Source: Patescibacteria group bacterium (lineage in GTDB: Bacteria; Patescibacteriota; Patescibacteriia; Patescibacteriales; WJLG01). From it: a stretch of DNA of 64,000 bases. Every line of letters starts with the position of its first letter. The stretch's first letter is position 1. The DNA lies in assembly GCA_041652555.1 (NCBI GenBank), contig JBAZHE010000001.1:66847-130846 (forward strand), given 5' to 3'. Shown in pieces: positions 12,477 through 57,277 of this stretch. The translations under genes and the position numbers were made by a program. The notes under the pieces are model-generated. The model was not told the DNA's origin. It worked only from the letters and a program-made list of their open reading frames with translations, and ran no database searches.

Positions 12477-12482
12477 TAAGGA

Positions 12483-12533
12483 GTTTTGAAAAAATGGAAT
12501 TCACCCCTAACCCCTCTTCCATTTTTTTAAAAC
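12483..12533. repeat. Cassette 3' hairpin (GTTTTGA...TCAAAAC stem, conserved 17-nt loop)
   Basis: gttttgaaaaaatggaa / ttccatttttttaaaac around the loop ttcacccctaacccctc. Confidence 0.75.
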
Positions 12534-12586
12534 AAAAAATTAAATTTTCTTAGATGCAGTCTCAAATTTAGTTTAACAAAAATCGA

Positions 12587-12748
12587 GATAAAAAATTTAC
12601 ATCGTAGAACAAGGAATATCTGGTTCAATAATTTTTCAATATAGATTACAATAAGGAATAAAAAATTATTTCACCCATATTTTTGCTCCGCTAACGCTGC
12701 GCAAAAACATCAGATATTCCTAATAGTTGTCTGAAATATTTTTTTGTC
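12587..12748 (+). repeat. attC-like site J2 (162 bp)
   Basis: R''-like cgtagAAC (AAC 12608..12610), inner arm aaggaatatctg, loop of about 88 nt, cagatattcct, then GTTgtctg (GTT 12726..12728). Confidence 0.7.
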
Positions 12749-12832: not shown

Positions 12833-13417
12833 ATGTTTCAATATATAGTTTTAATCGGAGCGGTCGTGCAGTTGGTTGGTGTATTTGTTTATATTCGAGC
12901 AACTGTTCGTGGCGAAACAAAACCGAATAGAGTCACTTGGTTAATGTGGTCTGTGGCGCCATTGATTGGATCTGTTGCAGCTTTTTCTGACGGCGTTCGT
13001 TGGGCGGTGCTTCCAGTTTTTATGTCTGGTTTTGCGCCACTGCTTGTTTTTATTGCTTCTTTTGTAAATCCCAAATCATATTGGAAGCTTGAAAAATTTG
13101 ATTATGTTTGTGGAGCTTTTTCAATTTTGGCATTAGTACTTTGGGGGATTACAAAAGAACCATTGATTGCGATTATTTTTTCAATCGCCAGTGATGGATT
13201 TGCGGCAGTGCCAACTATTATTAAATCTTGGAAACATCCAGATTCTGAATCCGTCGAAGCTTACACTACTGGGTTGTTCAACTCATTAACAAGCTTTTTT
13301 GCACTGAGAACATTTGGTATTTCAGAATTGGCCTTTCCAATATATTTAGTTTTGGTAAATTCGTCATTGATTGCCGCTGTTTATAAAGGGCGATTGAAAA
13401 AAATAATCGCAAAATAA
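12833..13417 (+). CDS. Multi-pass membrane protein, unknown function (cassette ORF)
   Basis: 194 aa with about 6 hydrophobic helices and an AAAGGA SD. Confidence 0.7.
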   Translation: MFQYIVLIGAVVQLVGVFVYIRATVRGETKPNRVTWLMWSVAPLIGSVAAFSDGVRWAVLPVFMSGFAPLLVFIASFVNPKSYWKLEKFDYVCGAFSILALVLWGITKEPLIAIIFSIASDGFAAVPTIIKSWKHPDSESVEAYTTGLFNSLTSFFALRTFGISELAFPIYLVLVNSSLIAAVYKGRLKKIIAK

Positions 13418-13420
13418 GGA

Positions 13421-13471
13421 GTTTTGAATTTTTGGCATTCACCCCTGACCCCTCTGCCAAAAATCCAAAAC
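13421..13471. repeat. Cassette 3' hairpin, second copy
   Basis: gttttgaatttttggca / tgccaaaaatccaaaac around the loop ttcacccctgacccctc. The stem sequence covaries relative to the other copies. Confidence 0.75.
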
Positions 13472-13523
13472 AAAAATCAAATTTTCTTTTAGAATAACCA
13501 AAGTTTGTGCCAATAAAATAGAA

Positions 13524-14600: not shown

Positions 14601-15434
14601 ATGACAAAGAAACAAAAAATAAAAGTTGAAGGTATTGAAATAGTCACTTTTACCAAAGATAATAGCGATTATATTTCTTTAACCGATATTGCAAAACATA
14701 AAAATTCAGAGGCCGGCTTGGTTATTTCCCATTGGCTAAGCACTCGTTTTGCCATTGAATTCATGGGGATATGGGAAAAAATGAATAATCCCAATTTTAA
14801 AGTTACTGAATTCAGTAACTTTAAAAATCAAAGCGGCGCCAATGGTTTTGTATTGTCTGTCCAGCAATGGGTCAATAAAACTAGCGCTATTGGAATTTTT
14901 GCCACAAGAGGGCGCTATAATAGCGGTACTTTCGCTCACAAGGACATTGCCTTTGAATTTGCTTCTTGGATTTCAGCGGAATTTAAGTTTTATCTCATCA
15001 AAGAATTTCAGCGATTAAAGGAAGATGAAAATAACAGGCAAAAGTTAGAATGGAATCTCCAGCGAACACTGGCAAAAATCAACTACAAAATTCATACCGA
15101 TGCCATAAAGGAGAAATTAATCCCCCTTGAATTAACCAAGGAACAGATTAATATGGAATATGCCAGTGAAGCGGATTTGCTCAATGTTGCATTATTCGGA
15201 ATAACCGCAAAAACGTGGCGAGATCAAAATAAAGAATTAGATGGAAACATTCGAGATTATGCCTCAATTGAACAGTTAGTGGTTCTGTCTAATCTTGAAA
15301 GTATAAACGCATTGTTAATTCGCGAAGGATTTTCCACTGAAGATCGGATTCAAAAATTAAATAGCACCGCGATAATTCAGATGAAATCGCTTTTAATAAA
15401 CACTGAAATAAAAAAATTGGAATCGCCAAAATAA
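14601..15434 (+). CDS. KilA-N domain-containing protein
   Basis: The N-terminal 130 aa match the KilA-N pattern (YISLTDIAK...W...FAHKDIAFEFASWIS), followed by a coiled C-terminal half. Confidence 0.8.
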   Translation: MTKKQKIKVEGIEIVTFTKDNSDYISLTDIAKHKNSEAGLVISHWLSTRFAIEFMGIWEKMNNPNFKVTEFSNFKNQSGANGFVLSVQQWVNKTSAIGIFATRGRYNSGTFAHKDIAFEFASWISAEFKFYLIKEFQRLKEDENNRQKLEWNLQRTLAKINYKIHTDAIKEKLIPLELTKEQINMEYASEADLLNVALFGITAKTWRDQNKELDGNIRDYASIEQLVVLSNLESINALLIREGFSTEDRIQKLNSTAIIQMKSLLINTEIKKLESPK

Positions 15435-15446
15435 AAACAATAAGGA

Positions 15447-15497
15447 GTTTTGAAAAAACGTAATTCACCCCTAACCCCTCTTCCGTTTTTTCAAAAC
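15447..15497. repeat. Cassette 3' hairpin, third copy
   Basis: gttttgaaaaaacgtaa / ttccgttttttcaaaac around the loop ttcacccctaacccctc. Confidence 0.75.
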
Positions 15498-15550
15498 AAA
15501 AAAATCAAATTTTCTTATACGTAAAGCAACGCCAGCTCAATAAAAACCAA

Positions 15551-15711
15551 GATAAAAAATTTACATCGTACAACAAGGAATATCTGGTTCAATAATTTTT
15601 CAATATTATTTATAATAAGGAACAAAAAATTATTTCACCCATATTTTTGCTCCGCTATCGCTGCGCAAAAACATCAGATATTCCTGACTGTTAGGCGTAA
15701 TTTTCACTTTT
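15551..15711 (+). repeat. attC-like site J5 (161 bp) ending in the canonical core GTTAGGC
   Basis: 15551..15685 differs from 12587..12721 at about 7 of 135 positions. Identity stops just before GTTAGGC (15690..15696). Confidence 0.75.
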
Positions 15712-22095: not shown

Positions 22096-22169
22096 GCGCC
22101 CGTAGCTCAACTGGATAGAGCGTCTGGCTTCGGACCAGAAGGTTGCGGGTTCAAGTCCTGCCGAGCGCA
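22096..22169 (+). tRNA. tRNA-Arg (anticodon TCG)
   Basis: Manual cloverleaf: acceptor gcgcccg/cgagcgc, anticodon loop cttcgga, T-loop ttcaagt. Confidence 0.85.
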
Positions 22170-22179
22170 CAGTTCAGAG

Positions 22180-22255
22180 TTCGAATTTCGAAGTGCGAGT
22201 TTCGAATTAAATTTATAAATTAGATAATTCGCACTTCGCACTTCGAAATTCGAAA
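22180..22255. repeat. Long hairpin in tRNA spacer 1 (TTCGAA-rich)
   Basis: ttcgaatttcgaagtgcga...tcgcacttcgaaattcgaa, with at least 19 contiguous complementary nt. Confidence 0.75.
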
Positions 22256-22264
22256 GTTGAAAGG

Positions 22265-22338
22265 GGCTGGGTAGCTCAGCTGGTTAGAGCACGGCACTCA
22301 TAACGCCGAGGTCGAGGGTTCAAGTCCCTCCCCCGCCA
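22265..22338 (+). tRNA. tRNA-Met (anticodon CAT; elongator-like, but Ile2 cannot be excluded)
   Basis: Manual cloverleaf: anticodon loop ctcataa, T-arm gaggg ttcaagt ccctc. One acceptor-stem mismatch. Confidence 0.8.
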
Positions 22339-22347
22339 CAATGAAAA

Positions 22348-22439
22348 GTTCGAATTACGAAATGCGAAGTTCGAATTGATTTTTTAAGAAATATTTAGTA
22401 GTATTATAATTCGCACTTCGAACTTTGTAATTCGAAATT
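22348..22439. repeat. Long hairpin in tRNA spacer 2, related to spacer 1
   Basis: agttcgaattacgaaatgcgaagttcgaatt ... aattcgcacttcgaactttgtaattcgaaatt. Confidence 0.7.
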
Positions 22440-22446
22440 TTAAATG

Positions 22447-22519
22447 GCGCTCATAGCTCAGTTGGTAGAGCAACTCCCTCTTAAGGAGATGGTCGTGGGT
22501 TCAAATCCCTCTGAGCGCA
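22447..22519 (+). tRNA. tRNA-Lys (anticodon CTT)
   Basis: Manual cloverleaf: acceptor gcgctca/tgagcgc, anticodon loop ctcttaa, T-loop ttcaaat. Confidence 0.8.
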
Positions 22520-22681
22520 CACTTCGACAAATTCAGTGCAGGCAAAGATAAAAATCGTCCAGTCGGGTGATTTTTTGATTTATTATTAAGTAGAGGATAT
22601 AATAAAATAAAATTTTGGTGTTTTCATGAGCTTTAAGGGATTTCTCTCTGCGTTTCGCTTCGTTCTAAATGACGATTTTTT

Positions 22682-31454: not shown

Positions 31455-32285
31455 ATGGAAACAATAGCCAAACCAAACAAAATAGAATTTTTAAAAGGCG
31501 CTTCTGCTAAAGAGGCGACTGTAGTGGTGGAGCCGTTTTATCCTGGTTATGGTATGACCGTCGGTAATTCTTTGCGTCGCGTCATGCTTTCTTCTTTGGT
31601 TGGCACAGCCGTTGTCGGAGTGAAGATTGAAGGTGTGAGTCATGAATTCAATTCTTTGTCACACGTTAAGGAAGATATTCTGGAGATTGTGATGAATATC
31701 AAAAAATTAAAAGTAAGGATTGACGGTGAAGATGAGGAAATAAAACTAGAGCTGGAAGTCCATGGCAAGAAAGAAGTGTCCGCTGCTGATATTAAAAAAG
31801 ATTCCCGCGTGGAAATTGTTAATAAGGATATGGCGATTGCCACTATCACTGATATGGCCGGATCATTAAAAATGGAAATAACTATCGGCCGTGGCCGTGG
31901 TTATCGTCCAGTGGAGGCGACCGAGAAAAAGAATAAAGAAATCGGCTATATTGAAACGGACGCAATTTTTTCTCCAGTTTTATCCGCCGGTCTAAGAGTG
32001 GAAAATGTCCGCGTTGGCAAAATGACTAATTGGGACAAATTAATGATTGATATAATTACTGATGGAACTATTACACCAGAAGAAGCTTATCGCGATTCGG
32101 TAAAAATTTTACAAGATCAGGTTGCTTCTTTGAGTGACGAAGTTGTTGTTGCGGAAGAAATTGTTTCTGAAATTGAAGAAAGGGATGCTGTGTCTGAACC
32201 TGAAGATGTTGAAGAATCCGCCTCCGCTAAAGTTGTGGAGGACAAAGGGAAAAAAATTAAGAAGGAGAAAAAACTAAATAGTTAA
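31455..32285 (+). CDS. rpoA: DNA-directed RNA polymerase alpha subunit: NTD only, with an acidic tail in place of the alpha-CTD
   Basis: The NTD motif GNSLRRVMLSS is present. The last 50 aa or so are D/E/K-rich, with no HhH alpha-CTD-like sequence. Confidence 0.88.
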   Translation: METIAKPNKIEFLKGASAKEATVVVEPFYPGYGMTVGNSLRRVMLSSLVGTAVVGVKIEGVSHEFNSLSHVKEDILEIVMNIKKLKVRIDGEDEEIKLELEVHGKKEVSAADIKKDSRVEIVNKDMAIATITDMAGSLKMEITIGRGRGYRPVEATEKKNKEIGYIETDAIFSPVLSAGLRVENVRVGKMTNWDKLMIDIITDGTITPEEAYRDSVKILQDQVASLSDEVVVAEEIVSEIEERDAVSEPEDVEESASAKVVEDKGKKIKKEKKLNS

Positions 32286-33002: not shown

Positions 33003-33494
33003 ATGGCTATTAAAGAAGAAAAAAAAGAAGTTAAACCGAAAAAAGAAGTTTCTAAAGAAGCTGTTGTTAAGAAGGAGAAAAAAGAAAAAGAAACTATTGG
33101 TTTTTCTGGAAAATATATCCAGGCTCTTGGTCGTCGCAAAACTGCGGTCGCCCAAGTTCGTTTATATGTTGAAGGCCCAGCTGTTTTCACTGCTAATGGA
33201 AAAGATTTGGAAAAATATTTCAATGAAGCAAAAGCATCAACTGCTTTGCAACCGATAAAAGCCGCTGGTTTGGAAAAGACTGCTGGTGCTTCCATTATTG
33301 TTAAGGGCGGTGGCATCAATGCCCAAGCCGAGGCGGTTCGCCACGGTTTCGCCCGCGCCTTATTATTAATGGATCCTGAATTACAAGGCGCTATGCGTGC
33401 TAAAGGTTGGCTTACTCGCGACTCTCGTAAGGTTGAAAGAAAGAAACCTGGTTTGAAAAAAGCTCGTCGCGCACCACAGTGGTCCAAACGTTAA
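33003..33494 (+). CDS. rpsI: 30S ribosomal protein S9 with a K/E-rich N-terminal extension
   Basis: The S9 core (GRRKTAVA.V.L..G...GGG...QA.A..HG.ARAL...R.VERKK.G..KARR..Q.SKR) follows about 30 low-complexity residues. Confidence 0.92.
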   Translation: MAIKEEKKEVKPKKEVSKEAVVKKEKKEKETIGFSGKYIQALGRRKTAVAQVRLYVEGPAVFTANGKDLEKYFNEAKASTALQPIKAAGLEKTAGASIIVKGGGINAQAEAVRHGFARALLLMDPELQGAMRAKGWLTRDSRKVERKKPGLKKARRAPQWSKR

Positions 33495-33500
33495 ATTTTG

Positions 33501-33529
33501 TGTCATTCCTGCGGAGGCGGGAATCCAGC
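33501..33529. repeat. Solo half of the dRS3/NIME-like element, copy (b)
   Basis: gtgtcattcctgcggaggcgggaatccag, just after the rpsI stop. Confidence 0.7.
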
Positions 33530-36127: not shown

Positions 36128-36228
36128 AATTTTGAATTTTCAATTTTGAAATAAATCTAAATTTTATAATTTTAAAAATTAAGAAATTAGAAAATTATTT
36201 CAAAATTGAAAATTGAAAATTCAAAATT
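36128..36228. repeat. A/T-only long inverted repeat built from TTTTGAA/TTGAAAA heptamers
   Basis: aattttgaattttcaattttgaaataa ... ttatttcaaaattgaaaattgaaaattcaaaatt. The loop carries TATAAT. Confidence 0.75.
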
Positions 36229-36229
36229 A

Positions 36230-37795
36230 ATGAAAAGGAGGTGGATAATATTTTTTTCTTGCTGGTCGTTTGCCTTGGGTATTGCTATCGCCTCATTTTT
36301 ACCGCAAAGATTTTTGCTGTTTGATATATATTTTTTTGCCATCGCTATAATTTTTGGTTTAGTCGCGTTTTTAATTCCCTCTAAAAAGAGGGGTGGCGCA
36401 GTACTCTGCGACGGGGTGTGTCGTGTTAAGAATCAAAGCAATTTCAAGCGAGTCGTTTTGTTATTGCTGGCTTTTTTGTTTTTGGGAATTTGGCGTTTAG
36501 CTATTTCTTTTCCTGATAATTCGCCAGATAAAATTTGGTATTATAACGGAGAGAATTTAGAAATTACCGGCATTGTTGCGAGTGAGCCGGTTAATAAAGA
36601 AAAAACTCAGCGTCTGGAAATAAATGTTTTAAATATTAATCCCCCTCTAGAAAGAGGGGTGCCCGTACTCGGGCGGGGTGTGTCGAGCGTTACCAACAAA
36701 GCTGTTTCAGGAAGTATTCTCGTCTCCGTGCCAATTTATCCTGAATATTTTTACAGCGATGTTATAAAATTTCAATGCGAAATAAAGTCGCCCGGCGTGA
36801 TTGAAGATTTTGATTATGGTCGTTATCTCGCAGCAAAAAATATTTACTCAGTTTGCTATAGTCCTAAATTAATTTTATCTTATAAAGAAGGGGTGGAAAA
36901 AGGCGTGGGGCTAAACATAAAAAAATCTTTACCTTTGGAGTTTATTTGGCGTCCGATATTTTCTTTGCGCAAATTTTTTCGTTCCACTATTGAATTGGGT
37001 TTAAAAGAACCCGAGGCCGGATTAGTAAAAGCTTTTATTTTAGGCGACTCCACTGCCATTCCGGACGAGCTTAATAATTCTTTCCGTCAAAGCGGTCTTT
37101 CGCATATTGTGGCGATTTCCGGAACGCATATCACTCTAATGGTTGGAATGTTTTTCTTTTTATTGTTGGGAATAAATTTAAAACGACGCCAAGCTTTTTA
37201 TTTATCAATTCCCTTAATAATTTTTTATATCACCCTGGCTGGTTCGCCAGCTTCGGCAGTGCGTTCGGGGGTGATGGGATTTTTGGTTCTTTTGGCTTTG
37301 CATGTTGGACGCCTGAATCGTTTAGATTATTCTCTAGTTTTGTCTGGCGCAGTTATGCTTTTGGTTAATCCGAAATATTTAATTGCTGATGCCGGATTCC
37401 AGCTATCATTTTTGGCAGTTTTGAGCATGGCTTATTTGTACCCATTTTTTGATAATCGTCTTAAACCTTTTTATGAAAAAGCCCCTAAGAAAATTAGGGG
37501 AGTGGTAAAAGTTATTTGTCAAGCCTTTGCCTTAACAATCGCCGCGCAAATATTTACTTTGCCGATTTTAATTTTTAGTTTTCGCCAAATTTCTTTTATC
37601 GCACCATTTTCAAATATTTTAGTTCTTTGGATTTCTCCATTTTTAATGGGTGGAGCGTTTATCGGCATCGGTTTGTCTTTACTAATTCCTGTCGTCGCTC
37701 CATTTTTCTTTCTACCGACCGGACTAGTGGCTAAATATTTAATAGCTGTAGCCGAAATTTGTGCCACACTACCTTTCGCGTATTGGAAGTTTTAG
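36230..37795 (+). CDS. comEC: ComEC/Rec2-family competence membrane protein
   Basis: Multi-TM protein with the motif QSGLSHIVAISGTHITLM. ATG at 36230 (the ORF-track TTG is at 36206). Carries two in-frame REP-like inserts. Confidence 0.85.
   Translation: MKRRWIIFFSCWSFALGIAIASFLPQRFLLFDIYFFAIAIIFGLVAFLIPSKKRGGAVLCDGVCRVKNQSNFKRVVLLLLAFLFLGIWRLAISFPDNSPDKIWYYNGENLEITGIVASEPVNKEKTQRLEINVLNINPPLERGVPVLGRGVSSVTNKAVSGSILVSVPIYPEYFYSDVIKFQCEIKSPGVIEDFDYGRYLAAKNIYSVCYSPKLILSYKEGVEKGVGLNIKKSLPLEFIWRPIFSLRKFFRSTIELGLKEPEAGLVKAFILGDSTAIPDELNNSFRQSGLSHIVAISGTHITLMVGMFFFLLLGINLKRRQAFYLSIPLIIFYITLAGSPASAVRSGVMGFLVLLALHVGRLNRLDYSLVLSGAVMLLVNPKYLIADAGFQLSFLAVLSMAYLYPFFDNRLKPFYEKAPKKIRGVVKVICQAFALTIAAQIFTLPILIFSFRQISFIAPFSNILVLWISPFLMGGAFIGIGLSLLIPVVAPFFFLPTGLVAKYLIAVAEICATLPFAYWKF
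36373..36423 (+). repeat. REP-like element R1, in-frame inside comEC
   Basis: ccctct-aaaa-agaggg, then cgcag-tact-ctgcg, then acggggtgtgtcg. Translated as PSKKRGGAVLCDGVCR. Confidence 0.75.
36638..36685 (+). repeat. REP-like element R2, in-frame inside comEC
   Basis: cccctct-agaa-agagggg, then gcccg-tact-cgggc, then ggggtgtgtcg. Translated as PPLERGVPVLGRGVS. Confidence 0.8.
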
Positions 37796-37844
37796 TAAGT
37801 TTTGTCAAATAGGCAAAAAGACATAGAAAAGGTATAATTTATAT

Positions 37845-39335
37845 ATGATTTATGTTAATAAATTTAGAATAATTTGGATAATTGCTTTAACAGCCATGGT
37901 TTTTGTTTTGGCCTGGTTAAAAATCGTTCCGACCGGTAAAATTACCTATTTTAATAATAGCGACTTTATTAGTAATTTAACGCCAGTTGAGAGAATGAAT
38001 GTTGATAAAATTATTGGTGACCCTGTTTATTTTACTTTGCGTGTGCCTCGTCGTTTTGAGAGCGCTAAGTTGACTATAAAATTTAAAAATGAAAGTGCTT
38101 TGCCAATTATAGAAGCTGGGGTTTTGATTGATAAAAAAGTTTGGAACTATGATTTAAAGCCTTTGGACAATTCTATTTTGGATAATTTGATAGGTAAATG
38201 GAATTCTGTTCGCTCTGGAGATTTGCTTTTATTGCAGAGAGAGAAAAAGTTTAAAAGTGTAGAAGAATTTTTGAAAAATCCGCCAGTGAGTGATAAAATC
38301 GCTGCTTATAATTATTCTCTAGAACAAAATTTTTTATTACCAGATTATAAAACTTCAAAAGAAGAAATGACTTTGTGTCGTCCGCTTCAGGGTGCTTATC
38401 AATTTTATACATATATTAAGGATGAAGATTTGTCGTTTGATTTTGCTTTACAGGATTTGAATAAAAATGATGACGAAGATATAGTTGACGCTTTGGTTTA
38501 TTATAAGGATCAAGAAATATACAAAGAAACCTTACCAGATAATAATAGTAATAGTAGAAATTTAAAATTATTTTTAACCAATTTGCCAGAGGGAGTTTAT
38601 AAAATAAGTTTGCGCGCCAATAATGATATTGTGACGCGCACAATAACTACGTCACAATCAAAAATTACTTTTATAAATAAAGTCGCCTTGGCTGATACGC
38701 CCGAAGTTTCGTGCGGTCGAAATTTGTTTACCAATAGCCGAGTGGCGCAATTTCAAACAATTTTATCCAATAAGCTCGGACAAATTAAAATTACCCAGGC
38801 AATTAAATCCCCTCTAGAAAGAGGGGTGCATCAGTACTCTGAGGCGGGGTGTGTCGGCGTCTGCACACAGCAAGAAGTTAATTTGAACGAAACCTATAAA
38901 CTTTTTTCTACTGGATGCCAGAACAGGGCAGTGCCCTGTTCCTACGAGACCTTACCGTCATTTTCTGAAATTATTATGCCATCTGACGGGATAACTGTAA
39001 CTGGCGACGGTTTATTTTCTTTTTCCCTTGAACAATTTTTTAATCCGGAAATAAAAAAAGTTGACGAGAATTTTGATCCTGACCGAGAAGATGTAGATTT
39101 TATTATTGCTAAATATACACCACCAACACTCGATGGTGAATGGAAGATTGCCACCGCTGATTTTGATTTAACAAACGCTTATAAAGAATTTAATAAACAT
39201 AGTTTTTTGATTTCTATTCCAGGACTCCGCGCTGAAGATGGAACTTTGGATGGAGTAGAAGTTGGAGAGGTTAAAATTGAGCTATCTGGAGTAAGTTTGT
39301 TTGATAAAATATTTAAAATGATAAATGATAAATGA
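37845..39335 (+). CDS. Membrane-anchored hypothetical protein (496 aa)
   Basis: N-terminal TM segment and a long extracytoplasmic region. Carries the in-frame REP-like insert R3. Confidence 0.65.
   Translation: MIYVNKFRIIWIIALTAMVFVLAWLKIVPTGKITYFNNSDFISNLTPVERMNVDKIIGDPVYFTLRVPRRFESAKLTIKFKNESALPIIEAGVLIDKKVWNYDLKPLDNSILDNLIGKWNSVRSGDLLLLQREKKFKSVEEFLKNPPVSDKIAAYNYSLEQNFLLPDYKTSKEEMTLCRPLQGAYQFYTYIKDEDLSFDFALQDLNKNDDEDIVDALVYYKDQEIYKETLPDNNSNSRNLKLFLTNLPEGVYKISLRANNDIVTRTITTSQSKITFINKVALADTPEVSCGRNLFTNSRVAQFQTILSNKLGQIKITQAIKSPLERGVHQYSEAGCVGVCTQQEVNLNETYKLFSTGCQNRAVPCSYETLPSFSEIIMPSDGITVTGDGLFSFSLEQFFNPEIKKVDENFDPDREDVDFIIAKYTPPTLDGEWKIATADFDLTNAYKEFNKHSFLISIPGLRAEDGTLDGVEVGEVKIELSGVSLFDKIFKMINDK
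38806..38856 (+). repeat. REP-like element R3, in-frame inside the 37845 gene
   Basis: aatcccctctagaaagaggggtgcatcagtactctgaggcggggtgtgtcg. Translated as SPLERGVHQYSEAGCV. Confidence 0.8.
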
Positions 39336-39340: not shown

Positions 39341-39525
39341 TAGGGAGTATATTTAAAGAATTATTTTATGCTTTAACTGTTTTCTTGGTGGTTTTAGCGG
39401 TTTTAGAGTTGCTTTTTTCTCGGATGGTGTTGGCTTATATTAATTTAAGCTATTTGTTGCTCGTCTGGCTGATAATTGGTATAATTTTATTAGTAATATC
39501 AAAGAAAAAGTTGTCATCCCCGTGA
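39325..39525 (+). CDS. Small two-TM membrane protein (hypothetical)
   Basis: 66-aa ORF with two hydrophobic helices. Its last codons run into repeat element (c). Confidence 0.4.
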   Translation: MINDKLGSIFKELFYALTVFLVVLAVLELLFSRMVLAYINLSYLLLVWLIIGIILLVISKKKLSSP

Positions 39526-39594
39526 AAACGGGGATCCAGAATTTTTTACAGCAACGCTCGAACACTGGATTCCCGCCTACGCGGGAATGACACA
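39512..39594. repeat. dRS3/NIME-like element, copy (c)
   Basis: tgtcatCCCCGtgaaaaCGGGGatccag - 27 nt - ctggatTCCCGCctacGCGGGAatgaca. Confidence 0.85.
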
Positions 39595-39671: not shown

Positions 39672-40124
39672 TTATTTTTTATCCAATTGTCTATTGGTGT
39701 TTAAAAATTTGTATTTAATTTTTTTTCCAAGATAAACGGAAAAAAATAAGACGCAAATTAAGATTGTTAAAAAAATGCCCATTTTAATTTTTGTAGCAAA
39801 ATTATAGCATTTTTCTACAAGTAGAAAAATCGTTAAAAATGCAGCAGTATTTAAAAAAATACCTTCATTTAAAGATGGCAAGGCTTGTTCTGGAGGTTCT
39901 TTTTTTGAGCCGAAACCTAAACCACTGAGGAATAAAATAAATGCACTCCCTATTAATATAAGCATTAAAACAATAGCCTTATATTGAAGGTTGGAATGCA
40001 GAAAGTTCGTGATTTCTGGTTGAGATAGACGGACGATTGCGGAAAGAAGTAATCCTAAAATTGCACCAAACATAATCGACGCAAAGAAGTCTGCTAGATC
40101 AAATGATTTTTTTGAACTTTTCAT
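39672..40124 (-). CDS. Membrane hypothetical protein
   Basis: 150-aa ORF with 4 hydrophobic helices. Confidence 0.6.
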   Translation of the reverse strand: MKSSKKSFDLADFFASIMFGAILGLLLSAIVRLSQPEITNFLHSNLQYKAIVLMLILIGSAFILFLSGLGFGSKKEPPEQALPSLNEGIFLNTAAFLTIFLLVEKCYNFATKIKMGIFLTILICVLFFSVYLGKKIKYKFLNTNRQLDKK

Positions 40125-40203
40125 TTTTTACCTCCCTTATTTGATTGTTAAAGACCGTAAAGATACTATATTTATACCGTATTTTATTAACTTTGTCAAT
40201 ATT

Positions 40204-42171
40204 ATGTCAAAAAAAACGCTAAAAATACCCACTTTCGCTAAAGCTATGGCGGGCAAGACTAAAAAGAAGAGTGTTAATCAGGAGTTAACTGATGTTTTGT
40301 TAGCTTCTAAGAAGGTTTATAAGCCGTCTAAGAAGGTTGTGGCGGAGGCGGCGGTTAAAGACTGGGAAAAGGCTAGACGTGAGGCTGATAAAGATCCTTT
40401 GAAATATTGGGAAGAGGCAGCTCGCGATTTAGTTTGGTTTAAGCCATGGACTCAGGTTTTAGATAAATCACAAAAGCCGTTTTATAAATGGTTTATTGGT
40501 GGCAAAACAAATCTCGCCTATAATGCTGTTGACCGCTGGCTTAATACGCCGAAAGAAAATCAAGTAGCGATTATGTCTGAGGATGAAACCGGTCGCGCTC
40601 GTAAATTTACTTACAAAGAAATTTCTCGTGAAATTAATAAAACCGTTAATGCTTTAAAAAATATTGGTGTGAAAAAGGGCGACAGAGTGGCAATTTATAT
40701 GCCAAACATTCCAGAAATTGCTTTTGCGATGTTGGCTTGCGCAAAAATTGGTGCGATGCATTCTGTGGTTTATGCCGGTTATAGCGCCACCGCTTTAAAA
40801 GATAGAATTCAAGATGCTAGCGCTAAAGTTGTTTTTACTGCTGATGGTTCTTTGCGTCGCGGTAAGGTTATTAATTTGAAATCAGTTGTAGACGAAGCAG
40901 TTAAAGATTGTTCATCCGTAGAAAAAATAATTGTTGTTAAGAATAATAATCAAGAAGTAGCTTTTAATAGTAAAAAAGATATCTGGTATCACGATTTTAT
41001 CAAGGATCAATCAGATGAGGCTGTCTGCGAGGCGATGGATAGTGAGGATCCGGCTTTTGTTCTCTATACTTCTGGTACAACTTCTAAGCCAAAAGGCGTA
41101 GTGCACGTTCACGGTGGTTATCCAGTTGGAGTTTTGCGCACAATGAAATGGGTTTGGGACGTGAAAGAGACTGATATTTTTTGGTGTACGGCTGACCCTG
41201 GTTGGATTACCGGACATTCATATATTATATACGGACCATTGCTTGCTGGCGTAACTACTCTGATGTATGAAGGCACGCCGGATTTTCCAGAACAAGATCA
41301 TATTTGGAAATTAGTTGAAAAATATAAAATTACTATTCTTTATACCGCACCGACCTTGATTCGTGCGATGATGAGCATGGGCGACGAATTACCTGACAAA
41401 CATCTAATGGAAAGTTTGCGTCTTTTGGGCTCGGTTGGTGAGCCAATAAATCCTGAAGCTTGGCGCTGGTATTTTAAGCATATCGGCAAAGGACAGTGCC
41501 CAATTATGGATACTTGGTGGCAAACAGAAACAGGTTGCAATATGTTAACTCCTTTACCAAGCGCACCTTTAAAAGCTGGTTCAGCTACAAAACCATTCCC
41601 AGGAATTGAAGCCGATATCTACGGTATGAATGGCAAAAAAGTTCCTGTTGGCAAAGGCGGTTATTTAGTTATTAAAAATCCTTGGCCATCAATGATTCGC
41701 ACAGTTTTTAATGCCCCGGAAAGATATTTAAAAACTTACTGGAAACAAATTAAAGGAGTTTATTTCACCGGTGATATTGGTTTTAAGGATAAAGATGGTT
41801 ATTTCTTTATTCAAGGTCGTACTGATGATATGTTAAAAATTGCCGGACATAGAATTGGTACTGCCGAAGTTGAGTCAGCCTTCGTGGCCCATCCTTCAGT
41901 GGCTGAATGTGGTGTTATCGGCGTGCCTGATGCTATCAAAGGCGAAACCATTAAAGCTTTTTGTATTTTGAAAAAGGGGATTATCGGCAGTGATGAATTA
42001 AAAGCTGAATTAAAAATGCACGTCCGCAAAACTATCGGGCCGGTTGCAGTTATGAGCGGAATAGAATTTGTAGAAACCCTACCAAAAACCCGTTCCGGAA
42101 AAATAATGCGTCGCGTCTTAAAAGCTAAAGAATTGGGCTTGCCATTAGGAGATACCTCAGCCCTGATTTAA
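40204..42171 (+). CDS. acs: Acetyl-CoA synthetase (AMP-forming)
   Basis: YTSGTTSKPKG AMP-binding motif, WWQTETG, and C-terminal PKTRSGKIMRR with the regulatory Lys. ATG at 40204. Confidence 0.93.
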   Translation: MSKKTLKIPTFAKAMAGKTKKKSVNQELTDVLLASKKVYKPSKKVVAEAAVKDWEKARREADKDPLKYWEEAARDLVWFKPWTQVLDKSQKPFYKWFIGGKTNLAYNAVDRWLNTPKENQVAIMSEDETGRARKFTYKEISREINKTVNALKNIGVKKGDRVAIYMPNIPEIAFAMLACAKIGAMHSVVYAGYSATALKDRIQDASAKVVFTADGSLRRGKVINLKSVVDEAVKDCSSVEKIIVVKNNNQEVAFNSKKDIWYHDFIKDQSDEAVCEAMDSEDPAFVLYTSGTTSKPKGVVHVHGGYPVGVLRTMKWVWDVKETDIFWCTADPGWITGHSYIIYGPLLAGVTTLMYEGTPDFPEQDHIWKLVEKYKITILYTAPTLIRAMMSMGDELPDKHLMESLRLLGSVGEPINPEAWRWYFKHIGKGQCPIMDTWWQTETGCNMLTPLPSAPLKAGSATKPFPGIEADIYGMNGKKVPVGKGGYLVIKNPWPSMIRTVFNAPERYLKTYWKQIKGVYFTGDIGFKDKDGYFFIQGRTDDMLKIAGHRIGTAEVESAFVAHPSVAECGVIGVPDAIKGETIKAFCILKKGIIGSDELKAELKMHVRKTIGPVAVMSGIEFVETLPKTRSGKIMRRVLKAKELGLPLGDTSALI

Positions 42172-42180
42172 TAATGTATT

Positions 42181-42244
42181 AATCCCCTCTATGTGGGGGT
42201 GCCATAGTCCCTGTACTCAGGGCTGTGGCACCCAGGTGCAAGTG
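42181..42244 (+). repeat. REP-like hairpin R4, left flank of the RAYT pseudogene
   Basis: aatcccctctatgtgggggtgccatagtccctgtactcagggctgtggcaccc... Confidence 0.8.
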
Positions 42245-42258
42245 TTTAAAAAAAAGTT

Positions 42259-42804
42259 ATGCCACCACTAAGGATAAATATTGAAAACGAGAATTCTTTG
42301 CATTTTTTGACGCTGACTATTATTGAGTGGATAGATATTTTTACTAAGCCACAATATTTTGATATTATTATTGACAGTTTGAAATATTGTCGAGAAAATA
42401 AAGGCTTAAAATTATTTGAATTCGTTATTCTAGCTAATCATTTGCATTTAATTGTTAAAGCTAAAGAGGGCTATAAATTATCGCAAATAGTTAGCGATTT
42501 TAAAAAATACACTACGAGAGAAATTCTGAAAGCTTTGCAGGTGGACAATAGGAGATATATTTTAAATTTAATTAAAAATAGTTTTTCCAGAAAAAAAGAT
42601 TACGAAAATCAAATTTAGCAAAGAGAAAATTATCCAGAAATGATTAGTTCGGAAAAATTTTTGCAAGAAAAGATAAAATATATTCATAATAATCCAGTAA
42701 AGAAAAATTATGTTTGCTTGCCGGAGTATTGGTATTATTCTTCGGCTAGAAATGATATATTAAACGATAATAGTTTAATTGAGCTTGATAATCTTTGGGC
42801 GTAG
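42259..42804 (+). pseudogene. REP-associated tyrosine transposase (RAYT / IS200-like Y1 HUH transposase) with an in-frame TAG
   Basis: HUH motif NHLHLIV, FKKYTTREI, YIHNNPVKK...YWYYSSA. TAG at 42616..42618 sits where homologs have the W of xWQR. Confidence 0.8.
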
Positions 42805-42815
42805 TACTGAGATTT

Positions 42816-42866
42816 GCAAATAGGGTGCCACAGCCTTGAGTACCGGGACTATGGCACCCCCAAGTA
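42816..42866 (-). repeat. REP-like hairpin R5, right flank of the RAYT pseudogene, inverted relative to R4
   Basis: The reverse complement reads tgggggtgccatagtcccggtactcaaggctgtggcaccc. Confidence 0.8.
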
Positions 42867-42920
42867 AAGATAATTTTAATATTAGCGTTACGAATTATGC
42901 GTTGCGCGTTATAAGAATAT

Positions 42921-45614
42921 ATGGAAATGTCACATCATTTAAGCGAAAAAAGGTTGGATAAGATTTTTAATCCGCAGACTATTGCGGTTATTGGTGCTTC
43001 TGATAAACAGGGCGGAGTTGGCAATGCTTTGATGAAAAATTTGATTGGTAATAATTATCAAGGGATTGTTTATCCGGTTAATCCTAATCGTGAAAGCGTG
43101 CAGGGGATTAAAGCTTATGTGAAGGTTTCGGATATTCCGGACAAGATTGATTTGGCAATTATTTGTACTCCGGCGGTGACTGTGCCGGCGATTGTTGAGG
43201 AGTGTGGTCAGGCTGGGGTTTCCGGTTTGGTTATTATTTCTTCTGGTTTTGATGAAATTGGCGAGAAGGGCAAAAAAATGAGTGAAGAAATTTTGTCTAT
43301 CGCTAACACTTATAATATGCGCGTAGTTGGGCCGAATTGCCTTGGCTTTATTCGTCCGTCAATCAATCTTAATGCTAGCTTTGCCAACAAAATGGCTTTG
43401 CCCGGGCATATTGCTTTTATTTCTCAATCAGGGGCGCTTTGTACTTCTATTCTTGACTGGTCAGTAAAAAATAATGTTGGTTTTTCTCATTTTGTTTCAA
43501 TTGGTTCTAATATTGATATTTCTTTTCATGATTTGATTGATTATTTCGGTGATGATCCAGAGACTGATAGTATTTTGATTTATATGGAGTCTTTGAAAGA
43601 GGCGCGAAAGTTTATGAGTGCGGCGCGGGCGTTTTCTCGTAAAAAACCAATTGTAGTTTTGAAAGTTGGACGCACTGAGGCTGGTTCTCGTGCAGCTAAG
43701 TCGCATACTGGAGCGATTACTGGTAATGATTCGGTTTATGATGCGGCCTTTGAACGTGCTGGCATTATTCGTGTTGATGGTGCTTTGGAACTTTTTCATG
43801 TAGCAAAAAGTTTGGCTATGCAAAAACGCCCACTTGATAATCGTGTGGCGGTAATTACTAATGCTGGTGGTCCTGGTGTTATTGCGGCTGATCGTTTGGC
43901 CTTAAAAGGTGGGCGTTTAGCAGAGCTGTCACATAAGACAGTTGAAGCTTTAAAAAATATTTTGCCGGCATCCGCTTCCACTGTTAATCCAGTTGATATT
44001 TTGGGTGATGCTGATTCTTTGCGTTATCGTCAGGCCGTGGAATTATGCTTAGAAGACTCTGGAGTTGATGCAGCTTTGATAATTTTGACACCGCAAGAAA
44101 TGACTAGCCCGACTGATGTAGCGCGGCAAATTGTTTCGGTCCAAAACAAAAAAGGTAAAATGATTTTTGCTTCTTGGATGGGTGGCGACGATGTAGCTGA
44201 AGGGCGGGTGATTTTGGAGCAAGGAAATATTCCAATATATAGAACGCCAGAAGAGGCGGTTGATATTTTTATGTATGTTGATAGTTACCGCAAACGTTTG
44301 GAATTTTTGAAAGAAACTCCAGGGTCTATTCCACATGCTTTTAAACCAAAAACTGAGGCAAATAAAAAATTAATTGAAAAAGTTGTTGCTTCTGGGCGAA
44401 CGGTTTTGACTGAAATTGAAGCTAAAGAAATGATTGCTAATTACGGAATTCCAGTAGCAAAAAATGGTGTCGCCAATTCGGCTACCGAGGCTGGAGAGAT
44501 TGCTGAAAAAACAGGCTTCCCAGTAGTGATGAAAATTCTTTCGCCTGATATTTTACACAAGACTGACATTGGCGGTGTAAAATTAAATATTAATTCTAAA
44601 GCCGAAGCAGAAAAGGCTTACAAAGAAATAATAGCGGGCGCGAAAAAGGGCGCACCTAAGGCAAAAATCGATGGCGTATTTATTGAGGTAATGACCAAGA
44701 AGCGCTACGAGCTTTTGATTGGTTGTAAGAAGGATGAGGTTTTTGGCCCGGCGATTGTTTTTGGTATGGGTGGTGTGGCCGTGGAAGTTTTTCGTGATAC
44801 AGCGGTTGGTTTGCCACCGTTGAATATGTCTCTGGCTTTAAAAATGATTCAAGAAACAAAAATTTATAAATTATTAAAAGGTTATCGCGGAATGCCTGGA
44901 GTTGATATTCCCGCAATTCAATTTTTGCTTTATAAATTTGCTTATTTGGTAAGTGATTTTCCGGAGATAAAAGAATTAGATATTAATCCTTTTGCGGTTG
45001 ATGAAAAGGGTGGTGTGGTTTTGGATGCTAAAGTTATTTTGGATGAAAAAGTTTTAGGCGTAAAACATAAACCTTATTCACATCTGGTAATTTCTCCTTA
45101 TCCTCGCGAGTATGAGAAGAAGATTGTTCTAGAAAATAAGAAAAATATTTTAATTCGTCCGATTCGTCCAGAAGATGAAGATTTAGAAATGGAGATGATA
45201 AATAATTTTTCTGCTACCACGATGCGTGATAGGTTTTTAGGTAAAGTTAAAAAAGTTAATTTGGAAATGTTGCGTGGTTTTACGCAAATAGATTATGATC
45301 GTGAAATTGCTTTGGTTGCAGAAACAGAGGAACGCAAAAAGAAAAAATTTGTTGGTGTTGTGCGTTTGGCTATTGACCCATACAATGAATCCGCCCTGTT
45401 AACAATCGCTCTAGTTGACTCCTGGCAAGAAATGACTTTAGGCAGTGAAATGATTGATTATATGTTAGACATTGCCCGCGCTCGAGGCGTGAAAAAAGTT
45501 TGGATGGAATTTTTTCCAACTAATAAAAGAATCATAAAAATCCTAACCAAACGCAATTTTACAATGAAAGAAAAGGGGAGTATTATGGTTGGAGAGTTGG
45601 AATTAGAAGACTAA
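42921..45614 (+). CDS. Pat-type protein lysine acetyltransferase (ADP-forming acyl-CoA synthetase-like domains fused to C-terminal GNAT)
   Basis: 897 aa: CoA-binding N-terminus (IAVIGASDK), ATP-grasp middle, GNAT-like C-terminus (IRPIRPEDE...VGVVRL...). Confidence 0.85.
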   Translation: MEMSHHLSEKRLDKIFNPQTIAVIGASDKQGGVGNALMKNLIGNNYQGIVYPVNPNRESVQGIKAYVKVSDIPDKIDLAIICTPAVTVPAIVEECGQAGVSGLVIISSGFDEIGEKGKKMSEEILSIANTYNMRVVGPNCLGFIRPSINLNASFANKMALPGHIAFISQSGALCTSILDWSVKNNVGFSHFVSIGSNIDISFHDLIDYFGDDPETDSILIYMESLKEARKFMSAARAFSRKKPIVVLKVGRTEAGSRAAKSHTGAITGNDSVYDAAFERAGIIRVDGALELFHVAKSLAMQKRPLDNRVAVITNAGGPGVIAADRLALKGGRLAELSHKTVEALKNILPASASTVNPVDILGDADSLRYRQAVELCLEDSGVDAALIILTPQEMTSPTDVARQIVSVQNKKGKMIFASWMGGDDVAEGRVILEQGNIPIYRTPEEAVDIFMYVDSYRKRLEFLKETPGSIPHAFKPKTEANKKLIEKVVASGRTVLTEIEAKEMIANYGIPVAKNGVANSATEAGEIAEKTGFPVVMKILSPDILHKTDIGGVKLNINSKAEAEKAYKEIIAGAKKGAPKAKIDGVFIEVMTKKRYELLIGCKKDEVFGPAIVFGMGGVAVEVFRDTAVGLPPLNMSLALKMIQETKIYKLLKGYRGMPGVDIPAIQFLLYKFAYLVSDFPEIKELDINPFAVDEKGGVVLDAKVILDEKVLGVKHKPYSHLVISPYPREYEKKIVLENKKNILIRPIRPEDEDLEMEMINNFSATTMRDRFLGKVKKVNLEMLRGFTQIDYDREIALVAETEERKKKKFVGVVRLAIDPYNESALLTIALVDSWQEMTLGSEMIDYMLDIARARGVKKVWMEFFPTNKRIIKILTKRNFTMKEKGSIMVGELELED

Positions 45615-45616
45615 TT

Positions 45617-45691
45617 TGTCATTCCCGTAAAAACGGGAATCTAGGATTCTGCGTGATAAAGCTGGATTCCCGCCTTCGTGGGAATGACACA
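45617..45691. repeat. dRS3/NIME-like element, copy (d)
   Basis: tgtcatTCCCGtaaaaaCGGGAatctag - 19 nt - ctggatTCCCGCcttcGTGGGAatgaca. Ends 6 nt before the murJ ATG. Confidence 0.85.
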
Positions 45692-49591: not shown

Positions 49592-49667
49592 AACACACCC
49601 TGGCCTAAGTACAGGCCACCCCCGAGATTTCGGGGTTCAGAAACCCTCTTTTTAGAGGGGAGTTAAT
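49592..49667 (-). repeat. REP-like element R6 (long variant with an extra hairpin), intergenic
   Basis: The reverse complement reads attaactcccctctaaaaagagggtttctgaaccccgaaatctcgggggtggcctgtacttaggccagggtgtgt. Confidence 0.75.
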
Positions 49668-51580: not shown

Positions 51581-53308
51581 ATGAATAAGATTTGGCATAT
51601 TAAACCGAAAGCTCGTGAAGAATTTTTTGAAAAATTTCCGGAGTACGGCCGGATTTTTTCGCAACTTTTATATAATCGCGACTTAAAAGAAAAAGAAGAA
51701 GTTGAATATTTTTTGCATGCCAAGTATGAAGATAATTTTGATCCGTTCATTTTTCGTGATATGGAGGCGGCCGTTGCTTTGGCTATCAAGAAGATAAAAG
51801 AGCGTAAGAAAATTTGTATTTATGGCGACTATGATGCCGACGGGGTGACTGCGTCGGTTTTGTTGTCTGAAATTTTGACAACTATAAAAGCGGATTGTTT
51901 TGTGTATATTCCGGAGCGGGCCGGCGAAGGTTATGGCGTGAATCAAGAAGCGATAGATAAAATTTTAAATAAAGGGGCGAATTTAATGATTACGGTAGAC
52001 GGTGGAATTAGAAATAAAAAAGAAATTGAATATGCCAAAAGTAAAGGGTTAGAAATTATAATTACCGATCATCATGAGCCGCCGGATGATGAAAAAGATT
52101 TACCGCCTTGCCTTATTATTAATCCGCATAATCACGGTGAAAAATATCCTTTTAAATTTTTATCCGGGGTGTCGGTGGCGTTTAAATTCGCTCGGGCGCT
52201 CTTGGAAAGATCAACTTTAACCGCCGAGCAGAAAAAAAAGATTTTAGAAAAGGTGATGGACTTGGTGGCGATCGGCACAGTGGCGGATTGTGTTTGTTTA
52301 ACCGGAGAAAATCGTTTGTTTTTGAAAAAAGGTTTGGAGGTTTTGAATGCCGGAAAAAGAATCGGCTTAAAAGAATTAGTAAAAAAAGCCAAACTTGATG
52401 GAAAGAATTTAGAAGCTTGGAATATTGGTTTTCAAATTGCTCCTCGTTTAAATGCTTCTAGTCGTATGGGGTCAGCTAATAATGCCTTCAATCTTTTGTC
52501 CACCAAGGAAAAGGATGTAGCCGAGAAAGAGGCGGAATTTCTGGATGAACGCAATCAGAAACGACAAAAAGAAACCGAATTGATGGTTGCCGAGGTGGAG
52601 GAGCAACTAAAAAAACAATTAGCAGAAAAAATAATTATTGGCGTCTGCCCAAAAGAAAGCAAAAATTGGAATGAAGGCGTTGTTGGCTTAGTAGCCGGTA
52701 GATTGACGGAAAAATATCATAAACCTACGTTGGTTTTAACAAGAAATGAAAATGATTATAAAGGTTCCGGCCGATCAATTGACGAATTTAATTTATTTAA
52801 TGCGGTTGAAGAATGTTCTGATTTACTTTTGAAGCACGGCGGACACAAAATGGCCTGCGGGTTTTCTTTAGCAACTTCGCGCCTCGAAGAATTTTCCAAT
52901 AAGATGCGTAAAATCGCCCGCCGTGAATTAGAGAAAGCCAGCATGGAAGCAAAGATTGAGATTGATATGGAGATAAATTTGGCCGAGGCGACTCGTCTTT
53001 TGGCGCGCGAAGTTCTTGGGCTGGCGCCGTTTGGTTATTACAATTCTCAGCCGAAATTTTTGAGCCGTAATGTTTTAATCAAAGATATTATTTTTATGGG
53101 TGCGGAAAGTCAACATTTGAAATTTCGCCTTGGTTCGGCCGACAATATTGGTGCTGGAGATTTTTGGGGCTTGAGTTTTAATCGCGCAACTGAATGGGCA
53201 GATCTAAAAATCGGCGACATTGTGGATATTGTTTATCAACTGGAAGAAAATGAATTCAATGGAAAAATAAATTTACAATTAAAAATTCAAGATATTAAAT
53301 TAAGTTGA
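51581..53308 (+). CDS. recJ: Single-stranded-DNA-specific exonuclease RecJ
   Basis: DHH motifs (GDYDADGV, DHH), DHHA1 (GGH..A.G). ATG at 51581 (the ORF-track TTG is at 51560). Confidence 0.92.
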   Translation: MNKIWHIKPKAREEFFEKFPEYGRIFSQLLYNRDLKEKEEVEYFLHAKYEDNFDPFIFRDMEAAVALAIKKIKERKKICIYGDYDADGVTASVLLSEILTTIKADCFVYIPERAGEGYGVNQEAIDKILNKGANLMITVDGGIRNKKEIEYAKSKGLEIIITDHHEPPDDEKDLPPCLIINPHNHGEKYPFKFLSGVSVAFKFARALLERSTLTAEQKKKILEKVMDLVAIGTVADCVCLTGENRLFLKKGLEVLNAGKRIGLKELVKKAKLDGKNLEAWNIGFQIAPRLNASSRMGSANNAFNLLSTKEKDVAEKEAEFLDERNQKRQKETELMVAEVEEQLKKQLAEKIIIGVCPKESKNWNEGVVGLVAGRLTEKYHKPTLVLTRNENDYKGSGRSIDEFNLFNAVEECSDLLLKHGGHKMACGFSLATSRLEEFSNKMRKIARRELEKASMEAKIEIDMEINLAEATRLLAREVLGLAPFGYYNSQPKFLSRNVLIKDIIFMGAESQHLKFRLGSADNIGAGDFWGLSFNRATEWADLKIGDIVDIVYQLEENEFNGKINLQLKIQDIKLS

Positions 53309-53389
53309 TGTCATCCCCGCGAAGGCGGGAATCTAGTAAGTTTACAAAGTGCTCGCACTCTGGATTCCCGCTTTCGCGGGAATGACACA
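53309..53389. repeat. dRS3/NIME-like element, copy (e)
   Basis: tgtcatCCCCGCgaagGCGGGAatctag - 27 nt - ctggatTCCCGCtttcGCGGGAatgaca. Ends 8 nt before the rnhA ATG. Confidence 0.85.
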
Positions 53390-57187: not shown

Positions 57188-57198
57188 ATAAGAATAGG

Positions 57199-57277
57199 TG
57201 TCATCCCCGCGAAGGCAGGGATCCAGAAATTTGTTTAGTACTTGCACTCTGGATTCCCGCCTTCGCGGGGATGACAA
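57199..57277. repeat. dRS3/NIME-like element, copy (f), inside the por operon
   Basis: tgtcatCCCCGCgaagGCAGGGatccag - 24 nt - ctggatTCCCGCcttcGCGGGGatgaca. Confidence 0.85.

Follow-up and report, generated by a model that had tools for sequence, protein, structure and literature searches.

Rickettsia palindromic elements (RPEs) are palindromic repeats found in frame within intact genes (Ogata et al., summarised in PMC3733652). In-frame insertions of repetitive extragenic palindromes (REPs) have been reported from bacteria such as O. terrae, Xanthomonas and Stenotrophomonas (Di Nocera et al. 2013); in two Xanthomonas species, recB has even received unlike REPs at nearly the same position (PMC3733652). 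Such insertions are also reported for REPs of subclass 2.4, as are REPs inside the genes of REP-associated tyrosine transposases (RAYTs; PMC6006769). The phenomenon of in-frame palindromic repeats is already known. Here we describe three copies of one two-hairpin element of 48-52 nt, all on the plus strand and inside two intact genes, comEC and the adjacent gene for a 496-aa protein, in a 64-kb stretch (the window; contig JBAZHE010000001.1 of assembly GCA_041652555.1, positions 66,847 to 130,846, contig GC about 37%) from a bacterium of the Patescibacteria, or candidate phyla radiation (CPR). What is new is the CPR host lineage, the specific bipartite family with its breadth across phyla, and the repeated use of particular loops by variants specific to each genome. 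We put at about 0.8 the probability that all three represent a small palindromic repeat, non-autonomous and of the REP or RPE kind, which was inserted and then filtered by reading frame, by the absence of stop codons and by the tolerance of the receiving loop.

From its A/T-rich 5' edge, which ends in (A/T)TC, the element runs through an invariant hairpin of 7 bp (CCCCTCT-N4-AGAGGGG) and a TG to a second hairpin, in which the stem may vary if it stays paired, and then to a tail (C)GGGGTGTGT. Hairpin 1 is CCCCTCT/AGAGGGG in all three in-gene copies (copies 1 to 3, Table 1), and the stems of hairpin 2 (CGCAG/CTGCG, CCCG/CGGG and TCAG/CTGA) surround a TACT loop with compensating changes between the copies. 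The preliminary description, made from the letters of the window, had correctly located the three copies and read their peptides; a covariance model built from 22 copies, all from non-CPR phyla and none from the window, matched copies 1, 2 and 3 with 51.4 (E 6e-15), 54.3 and 51.6 bits (E about 1e-15). When the 64 kb were scanned with the filters off, the model found, beyond these and a diverged intergenic copy 4 (22.8 bits, E 3e-5), no credible match, so that the window holds four copies. No inverted dimers of the element were present in the window, and dinucleotide shuffles gave zero matches to its 20-nt core. Folded as single-stranded DNA, each in-gene copy formed two adjacent hairpins (z -3.3 to -5.0; -4.3 for copy 1), and copy 4 formed three (z -4.8). 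The hairpin foot is GTGG in copy 1 and most copies from other phyla, and GTGC in copies 2 and 3; GTGG foot variants have been reported for REPs (PMC3733652, PMC6006769). When compared with the palindrome-associated transposable elements and miniature inverted-repeat transposable elements derived from IS200/IS605, the element showed an A/T-rich edge ((A/T)AT or AAAT) before all copies and no visible target duplication, and no fixed tetra- or pentanucleotide target emerged.

The three copies arrived in functional genes as in-frame insertions of a repeat, and are not native sequence. The closest syntenic relative, GCA_964486475.1 (L002), has the same gene order (RF1-ComEC-hypothetical) as the window and a ComEC that is 69% identical by BLASTP (75% in the alignment), and opposite copies 1, 2 and 3 it shows empty sites, with clean gaps of 20, 16 and 17 codons. 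The corresponding net insert lengths are 60, 48 and 51 nt, of which the 60 nt include 9 nt outside the element; at site 2 the gap coincides exactly with the element. The covariance model found no copy in L002 or L003, and the sites were clean and empty in the nearest relatives P0002, P0003 and P0124. The preliminary description had named homologous residues in orthologs free of the repeat as the observation that would speak against insertion, and no such residues were found at the three insert positions in any aligned ortholog lacking the DNA element. Both host genes are intact, as had been proposed: ComEC aligns over its full length with its homologs, the 496-aa protein, for which 293 homologs were found, is likewise of full length, the reading frames run on into conserved protein sequence on either side of the inserts, and the AlphaFold2 models of both proteins are confident (mean predicted local distance difference test score, pLDDT, 80.3 and predicted template modelling score, pTM, 0.75 for ComEC; 79.5 and 0.72 for the 496-aa protein). 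In these models pLDDT falls below 50 at every insert: in ComEC at 61-75 (a loop joining two helices) and at 150-162 (a loop of the oligonucleotide/oligosaccharide-binding (OB) fold part, flanked by strands 134-145 and 170-176), and in the 496-aa protein at 322-339 and 359-366. The other segments below 50 are 1-4 and 228-230 in ComEC, and 36-45 and 459-466 in the 496-aa protein. As judged from the models, the inserts are tolerated as disordered surface loops.

Comparison of the sequences indicates that conservation acts at the level of the nucleic acid and not of the peptide, as the preliminary description had held. Helix 2 had 20 double-change cells in the cross-phylum alignment (shuffles, 5.2) and 51 in the CPR alignment (shuffles, 10.5); none of 500 shuffles reached the observed value in either case, and sliding the partner columns of helix 2 as a control abolished the pairing. 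Helix 1 is nearly invariant, with no pair changed on both sides in the cross-phylum set, and says little either way. The copies are read in different frames and in both orientations, sense and antisense, to give unrelated peptides: within the window, the frame in the 5' half of copy 1 is unlike that of copies 2 and 3, and the frame in the 3' half of copy 2 is unlike that of copy 3. The frame that reads CTC TAG or CTC TAA was occupied only by a copy in L164 whose loop has no stop. In L001, the gene for an ortholog of the 496-aa protein (81% amino acid identity) also has the element at the site of copy 3, and the changes in its stem compensate each other (window, CATCAG...CTGAGG; L001, GCTCGG...CCGAGA). 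The first 27 nt of this copy and of copy 3 are identical (27/27), against 57.7% identity at the flanking third codon positions, and only 1.3% of the 24-nt windows in the gene are fully conserved between the two.

The element belongs to a cross-phylum family and is not private to this lineage. When GTDB representative genomes were scanned for the exact pattern CCCTCTARAAAGAGGGGTG-N8-24-GGGGTGTG, at least 116 stretches were returned (L004-L119), multi-copy in at least 10 phyla; among the matches listed are anammox Planctomycetes (Kuenenia, Scalindua, Brocadia, Anammoxibacter), Opitutae/Verrucomicrobia, Flavobacteriales, Cloacimonadota, Glassbacteria, Neomarinimicrobiota, Nitrospinota, Gemmatimonadales, Omnitrophota and others. 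The framework TC-CCCTCTA(A/G)AAAGAGGGG-TG-(variable hairpin)-(C)GGGGTGTG is identical everywhere, and each lineage has its own inner stem. Outside CPR, most copies look extragenic, as judged from low-GC loci, where the open reading frames (ORFs) spanning a copy are almost all short; high-GC loci, with their long spurious ORFs, are ambiguous on this point. Kuenenia has a composite of about 170 bp with terminal inverted repeats (CTATTCAGCGTAAT...CACACCCC / GGGGTGTGTATTACATGCTGAATAG), one end of which is the element. Rfam 15 gave only tRNAs at the gathering score in the window and nothing relevant at E up to 10 over 36340-36720, and a literature search on the core sequence and on REPs in CPR found nothing relevant. 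Plasmid and phage collections contained no copy of the element, so that no vector for cross-phylum spread was found. This breadth and the repeated use of the same loops in orthologs go beyond the preliminary description.

A metagenome scan for the GTAC-loop subtype gave about 30 genuine copies in low-GC contigs, many of them as head-to-head dimers of two hairpin subtypes; such dimers, which resemble the doublets known as REPINs and bacterial interspersed mosaic elements (BIMEs), occur in L127, L128, L145, L150, L153, L154 and L157. The covariance model found 63 copies in 360 kb of CPR-like contigs, which had been chosen for carrying a copy. An ORF criterion placed 17 of 67 copies, about a quarter, in frame within long ORFs, in either orientation (for example in the tgt gene of L121 and a 2.8-kb ORF of L136), and most copies are intergenic. 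The ComEC orthologs of L164 and L165 have a sense copy at site 2 and an antisense copy, read as THPVSRGASHPSREG, at a C-terminal loop. Among 113 ComEC homologs, the peptide signature was seen at site 2 in nine, at the C-terminal site in seven, and at site 1 in the window only. The inner loops are uniform within a genome, being GTACT in the window, CGCG(T/C)CGCGCG in L164 and GCCCCTGGC in L165, which suggests either repeated insertion of a genome-specific variant or homogenisation within genomes. In the ComEC and 496-aa protein alignments, other CPR orthologs have different GC-rich hairpin-derived peptides at the same loops (PLLLKEGLGVV, APFDGAQGGRGR, SPLLYKEGQGEV, PASRGASHPSQGG), suggesting that several repeat families colonise the same permissive sites.

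The parallel with RPEs drawn in the preliminary description is apt, and had already been generalised in the literature (PMC3733652). Like RPEs, the CPR element is a short palindromic repeat lying in frame in intact, apparently functional genes of a small-genome bacterium, with other copies intergenic, and adds residues (about 15-50) at surface-exposed positions. Unlike RPEs, it has a patescibacterial host, is bipartite, with an invariant and a covarying hairpin, and is shared with many free-living phyla, in which it looks mostly extragenic; the likeness described here is one of behaviour. With the intragenic REPs of Di Nocera et al. it has in common that REP-type hairpins occur in frame, singly or as dimers and sometimes two per gene, and the double targeting of recB in Xanthomonas parallels the recurrent ComEC sites. 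It differs from them in having a GTGG/GTGC foot, and not GTAG, and an extra conserved 5' hairpin. The intragenic REPs of O. terrae were considered as members of the same family and rejected, since the peptides they encode (VGPALAAG, GTGVPPV) are unrelated. The systems of REPs or REPINs with a RAYT (REPtrons; PMC6006769) are similar in that a single-copy NF047646 RAYT with inverted flanking hairpins lies nearby, that the foot resembles GT(A/G)G in copy 1 and most cross-phylum copies, and that head-to-head dimers exist in related contigs; they are dissimilar in that the hairpins flanking this RAYT are not of the in-gene family, the RAYT is a pseudogene, and no RAYT was found next to the copies sampled in other phyla.

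Insertion, frame, loop location, structural covariation and family membership are shown above. As to mechanism, we propose that the spread or exchange of copies would have taken place at the DNA level, with an HUH/Y1 enzyme most likely acting on single strands. Such a link to a Y1 enzyme is favoured by the RAYT pseudogene downstream of the in-gene copies, by the apex that its flanking hairpin has in common with copy 2 and by the 5' module on its left flank. It is also favoured by the GCGAAGC-type inner loops of many family members, which suit single-stranded DNA folding, the GCGAAGC mini-hairpin being stable as single-stranded DNA. Many insertions would hit genes because CPR genomes are very compact, and the survivors in genes would be those that combine a length in multiples of three, a stop-free frame and a permissive surface loop. 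For the TAGAAAG/TAAAAAG loop variant, two of the three sense frames and one of the three antisense frames are free of stops. The element would then be transcribed and translated with its host gene to give 16-20 disordered residues.

Several points weigh against this account. Translation of the insert as a disordered loop, though likely, is an indirect step of the argument. The 5' module is too conserved between orthologs for a decaying immobile insertion, which calls for function, gene conversion or independent insertion. The other points concern the RAYT, the only one in the window, which lies 3.4 kb downstream of the in-gene copies and which the preliminary description had taken to be flanked by the same family. 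Its identity as a RAYT stands, as does its state as a pseudogene (TGG to TAG at codon 120, W120; the intact 181-aa P0241, 85% identical, has W there). The flanks, in contrast to that description, are inverted copies of a different and longer hairpin, GG(C/T)(T/G)CCATAGTCCC-loop-GGGCTGTGG (GGTGCCATAGTCCC...GGGCTGTGGCACC), and the covariance model scores neither of them. All that the flanks share with the in-gene element is the 5' module AATCCCCTCTATGTGGGGGTG of the left flank, in degenerate form, and the GTACT apex; the apex CCCTGTACTCAGGG matches the inner hairpin CCCGTACTCGGG of copy 2, with CCC(T)GTACTC(A)GGG in common. Four RAYT-bearing loci of other CPR genomes (37 kb) contained no copy of the in-gene element. 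About 1.3 Mb of loci were searched by tblastn and with a RAYT profile HMM. In the roughly 900 kb of these that surround the 116 copies examined from other phyla, with about 8 kb sampled per copy, the window RAYT had no homolog, and the sole Y1-like ORF there, in L045, has unrelated REPs on its flanks.

Mobilisation of the in-gene element by this RAYT clade has, in our estimate, nearly an even chance. The strongest alternative, a tentative one that falls somewhat short of even odds, is that the neighbouring RAYT family did not mobilise the element: the long CCATAGTCCC...GGGCTGTGG hairpin would be the cognate repeat of the RAYT, and the in-gene family would have been spread by another enzyme, by recombination or by template switching. 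The long hairpin is found at RAYT flanks in three CPR genomes (it is kept in L160 and L162, and rare elsewhere) at loci without the in-gene element. The lack of RAYT homologs near the 116 other-phylum copies also favours this alternative, as does the report of whole REP superfamilies without a dedicated transposase (Di Nocera et al., PMC3733652). Against it, the RAYT hairpin shares the GTACT loop at its apex with copies 1 to 3, and this loop is rare otherwise in the family (the cross-phylum loops being GAAG, GTAG and GCAG), the 5' module of the element is present on the left flank of the RAYT, and only a short stretch was sampled around each other-phylum copy. Because the sole RAYT in the window is inactivated, it is plausible that the copies here are now immobile, unless another RAYT is present elsewhere in the genome. 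The RAYT family is 65-85% identical across Patescibacteria, and one relative has an intact RAYT within the same syntenic block. The block with acetyl-CoA synthetase and the RAYT is missing from L002, and in the P0241 contig the intact RAYT stands before acetyl-CoA synthetase, not after it.

Whether the same-site copies in orthologs reflect repeated insertion or old homogenised insertions is a matter of interpretation. An explanation of the ComEC and 496-aa gene copies as single ancient insertions, homogenised by gene conversion and precisely deleted in some lineages, is on balance doubtful. It fits the position of copy 3 at the same codon in orthologs 81% identical, with identical flanking ATT AAA, the occurrence of the ComEC site 2 copy or peptide signature in nine of 113 homologs, all in the closer clade, and the sameness of inner loops within one genome and their difference between genomes. 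It fits poorly with the clean empty sites in the three nearest relatives, with the clearly different elements at the same sites in P0123, P0013 and P0027, and with a 5' module whose conservation exceeds what neutral sites would permit if the insertion were old and passive.

That last excess would be explained, together with the recurrence at the same loops, if the element were more than selfish DNA, namely an undescribed cross-phylum structured motif of single-stranded DNA or RNA. In this unlikely alternative, the invariant CCCCTCT/AGAGGGG hairpin, the covarying hairpin and the GGGGTGTG tail would act as the recognition signal of a conserved factor, either of the host or domesticated, and would be kept by purifying selection in CPR genomes even in coding sequence, which would account for a base-perfect 5' module in diverged orthologs. 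It is very improbable that the inserts are kept for useful peptides (Cys-containing or Gly/Arg-rich extracellular loops) with the DNA similarity secondary. The region of copy 3 and its ortholog do encode C-x3-C (GCVGVC, GCVDAC), and copy 1 encodes CDGVC, but these cysteines are a by-product of TGT in GGGGTGTGT, the same DNA in other frames and in antisense gives unrelated peptides, the copies are mostly intergenic, the inserts are predicted to be disordered, and the stems covary at the nucleotide level.

Assembly or binning artefacts, with chimeric joins at repeats, can be dismissed almost entirely: one independent contig (L169) does break inside copy 2, but copies 2 and 3 with both flanks recur base for base in separate JGI, ENA and Logan assemblies (copy 2 in the independent assembly L168, copy 3 in L167-L169), and the frames continue into conserved protein on both sides. 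L169, a Logan contig, begins at GGGGTGCCCG within copy 2; short-read assemblers break at the element, which may fragment CPR genes in public assemblies. A 12.7-kb contig overlapping the window start, which adds about 4 kb upstream, contained no exact copy of the three elements.

Table 1. Features of the window discussed in the text (positions within the 64-kb stretch)
Feature	Position	Strand	Remarks
comEC	36206-37795	+	529 aa; Pfam DUF4131 (E 1.4e-17) and Competence (E 3.8e-50); intact; hosts copies 1 and 2
Gene for the 496-aa protein	37845-39335	+	Adjacent to comEC; intact; hosts copy 3 and a second small hairpin insert
Copy 1	36372-36423	+	TAATTCCCTCTAAAAAGAGGGGTGGCGCAGTACTCTGCGACGGGGTGTGTCG; in frame in comEC, residues ~55-72, read as LIPSKKRGGAVLCDGVCR; loop between two N-terminal helices
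Copy 2	36638-36685	+	AATCCCCCTCTAGAAAGAGGGGTGCCCGTACTCGGGCGGGGTGTGTCG; in frame in comEC, residues 145-160, read as NPPLERGVPVLGRGVSS (NPPLERGVPVLGRGVS); loop in OB-fold part of DUF4131
Copy 3	38805-38856	+	AAATCCCCTCTAGAAAGAGGGGTGCATCAGTACTCTGAGGCGGGGTGTGTCG; in frame in 496-aa gene, residues ~321-338, read as KSPLERGVHQYSEAGCVG
Copy 4 (diverged, intergenic)	49609-49664	-	Just upstream of lepA; extra hairpin between its two modules
RAYT pseudogene	42259-42804	+	NF047646, 108.8 bits (cutoff 80); Pfam Y1_Tnp; in-frame TAG at 42616-42618
RAYT left flank	42173-42240	+	Degenerate 5' module AATCCCCTCTATGTGGGGGTG fused to long hairpin GGGTGCCATAGTCCCTGTACTCAGGGCTGTGGCACCC; -16.9 kcal/mol, z -4.0
RAYT right flank	42821-42866	-	Inverted copy of long hairpin, without CCCCTCT module
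Block with acetyl-CoA synthetase and RAYT	39672-42900
GTAG-footed perfect 9-bp hairpin	38921-38945	-	GTAG-GAACAGGGC-ACT-GCCCTGTTC; in frame in 496-aa gene; 10-codon insert GCQNRAVPCS
Second repeat family	4518-4595, 33494-33528, 39505-39592, 45610-45689, 53302-53387, 57192-57276		TGTC-ATTCCC(G/C)-GAAG-GCGGGAAT-CCAG (unit TGTC-ATTCCCGC-GAAG-GCGGGAAT-CCA)
Third hairpin-like repeat	397-432, 460-495, 32210-32245, 40221-40256		AATCC-CC-ACGCTAAAG-T-GGAGGACAAAG; read in frame
Repeats of 86-159 nt	12463-12728, 13401-13486, 15427-15692		1-3 kb apart, containing AAGGAGTTTTGAA...ATGGAATTCACCCCTAACCCCTCT
Three tRNA genes	22096-22520		Arg-TCG, Met-CAT, Lys-CTT; mutually repeating spacers with (TTCGAA/TTCGCA)-rich palindromes

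The 496-aa protein is a CPR-specific membrane protein in which beta-sandwich domains come after an N-terminal helix. Scans of it with Pfam and NCBIfam gave no match, and a fold search of the PDB gave weak matches to carbohydrate-binding module (CBM)-like proteins and nothing better. The GTAG-footed hairpin in its gene is single-copy in the window, and the insert, which corresponds to the low-pLDDT segment 359-366, is absent from 24 of 24 aligned homologs. The second repeat family consists mostly of inverted dimers right after stop codons, none of them within a gene in the window. Its TGTC tag, 8-bp stem starting with AT, 4-nt loop and CCA tail all match the published CGTC-1 REPs (Neisseria dRS3, Rickettsia RPE-6). 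This family is distinct from the in-gene element, and its units indicate that the genome also hosts classical extragenic REPs. The third repeat is read as SSYAKATEDK-type peptides in Lys/Glu-rich C-terminal tails and as IPTFAKAMAGK near the N-terminus of acetyl-CoA synthetase. The repeats of 86-159 nt look like duplicated gene starts with ribosome-binding sites.

The recurrent same-loop copies with genome-specific variants provide a test case for target preference, gene conversion and selective filtering. The covariance model can be used as a search tool for a family of many phyla that neither Rfam nor the REP surveys consulted contain. For CPR bacteria, the finding means that part of the lineage-specific extra loops of their proteins stems from repeat insertion and not from protein evolution, which matters for annotating, aligning and modelling the proteins of these uncultured organisms.

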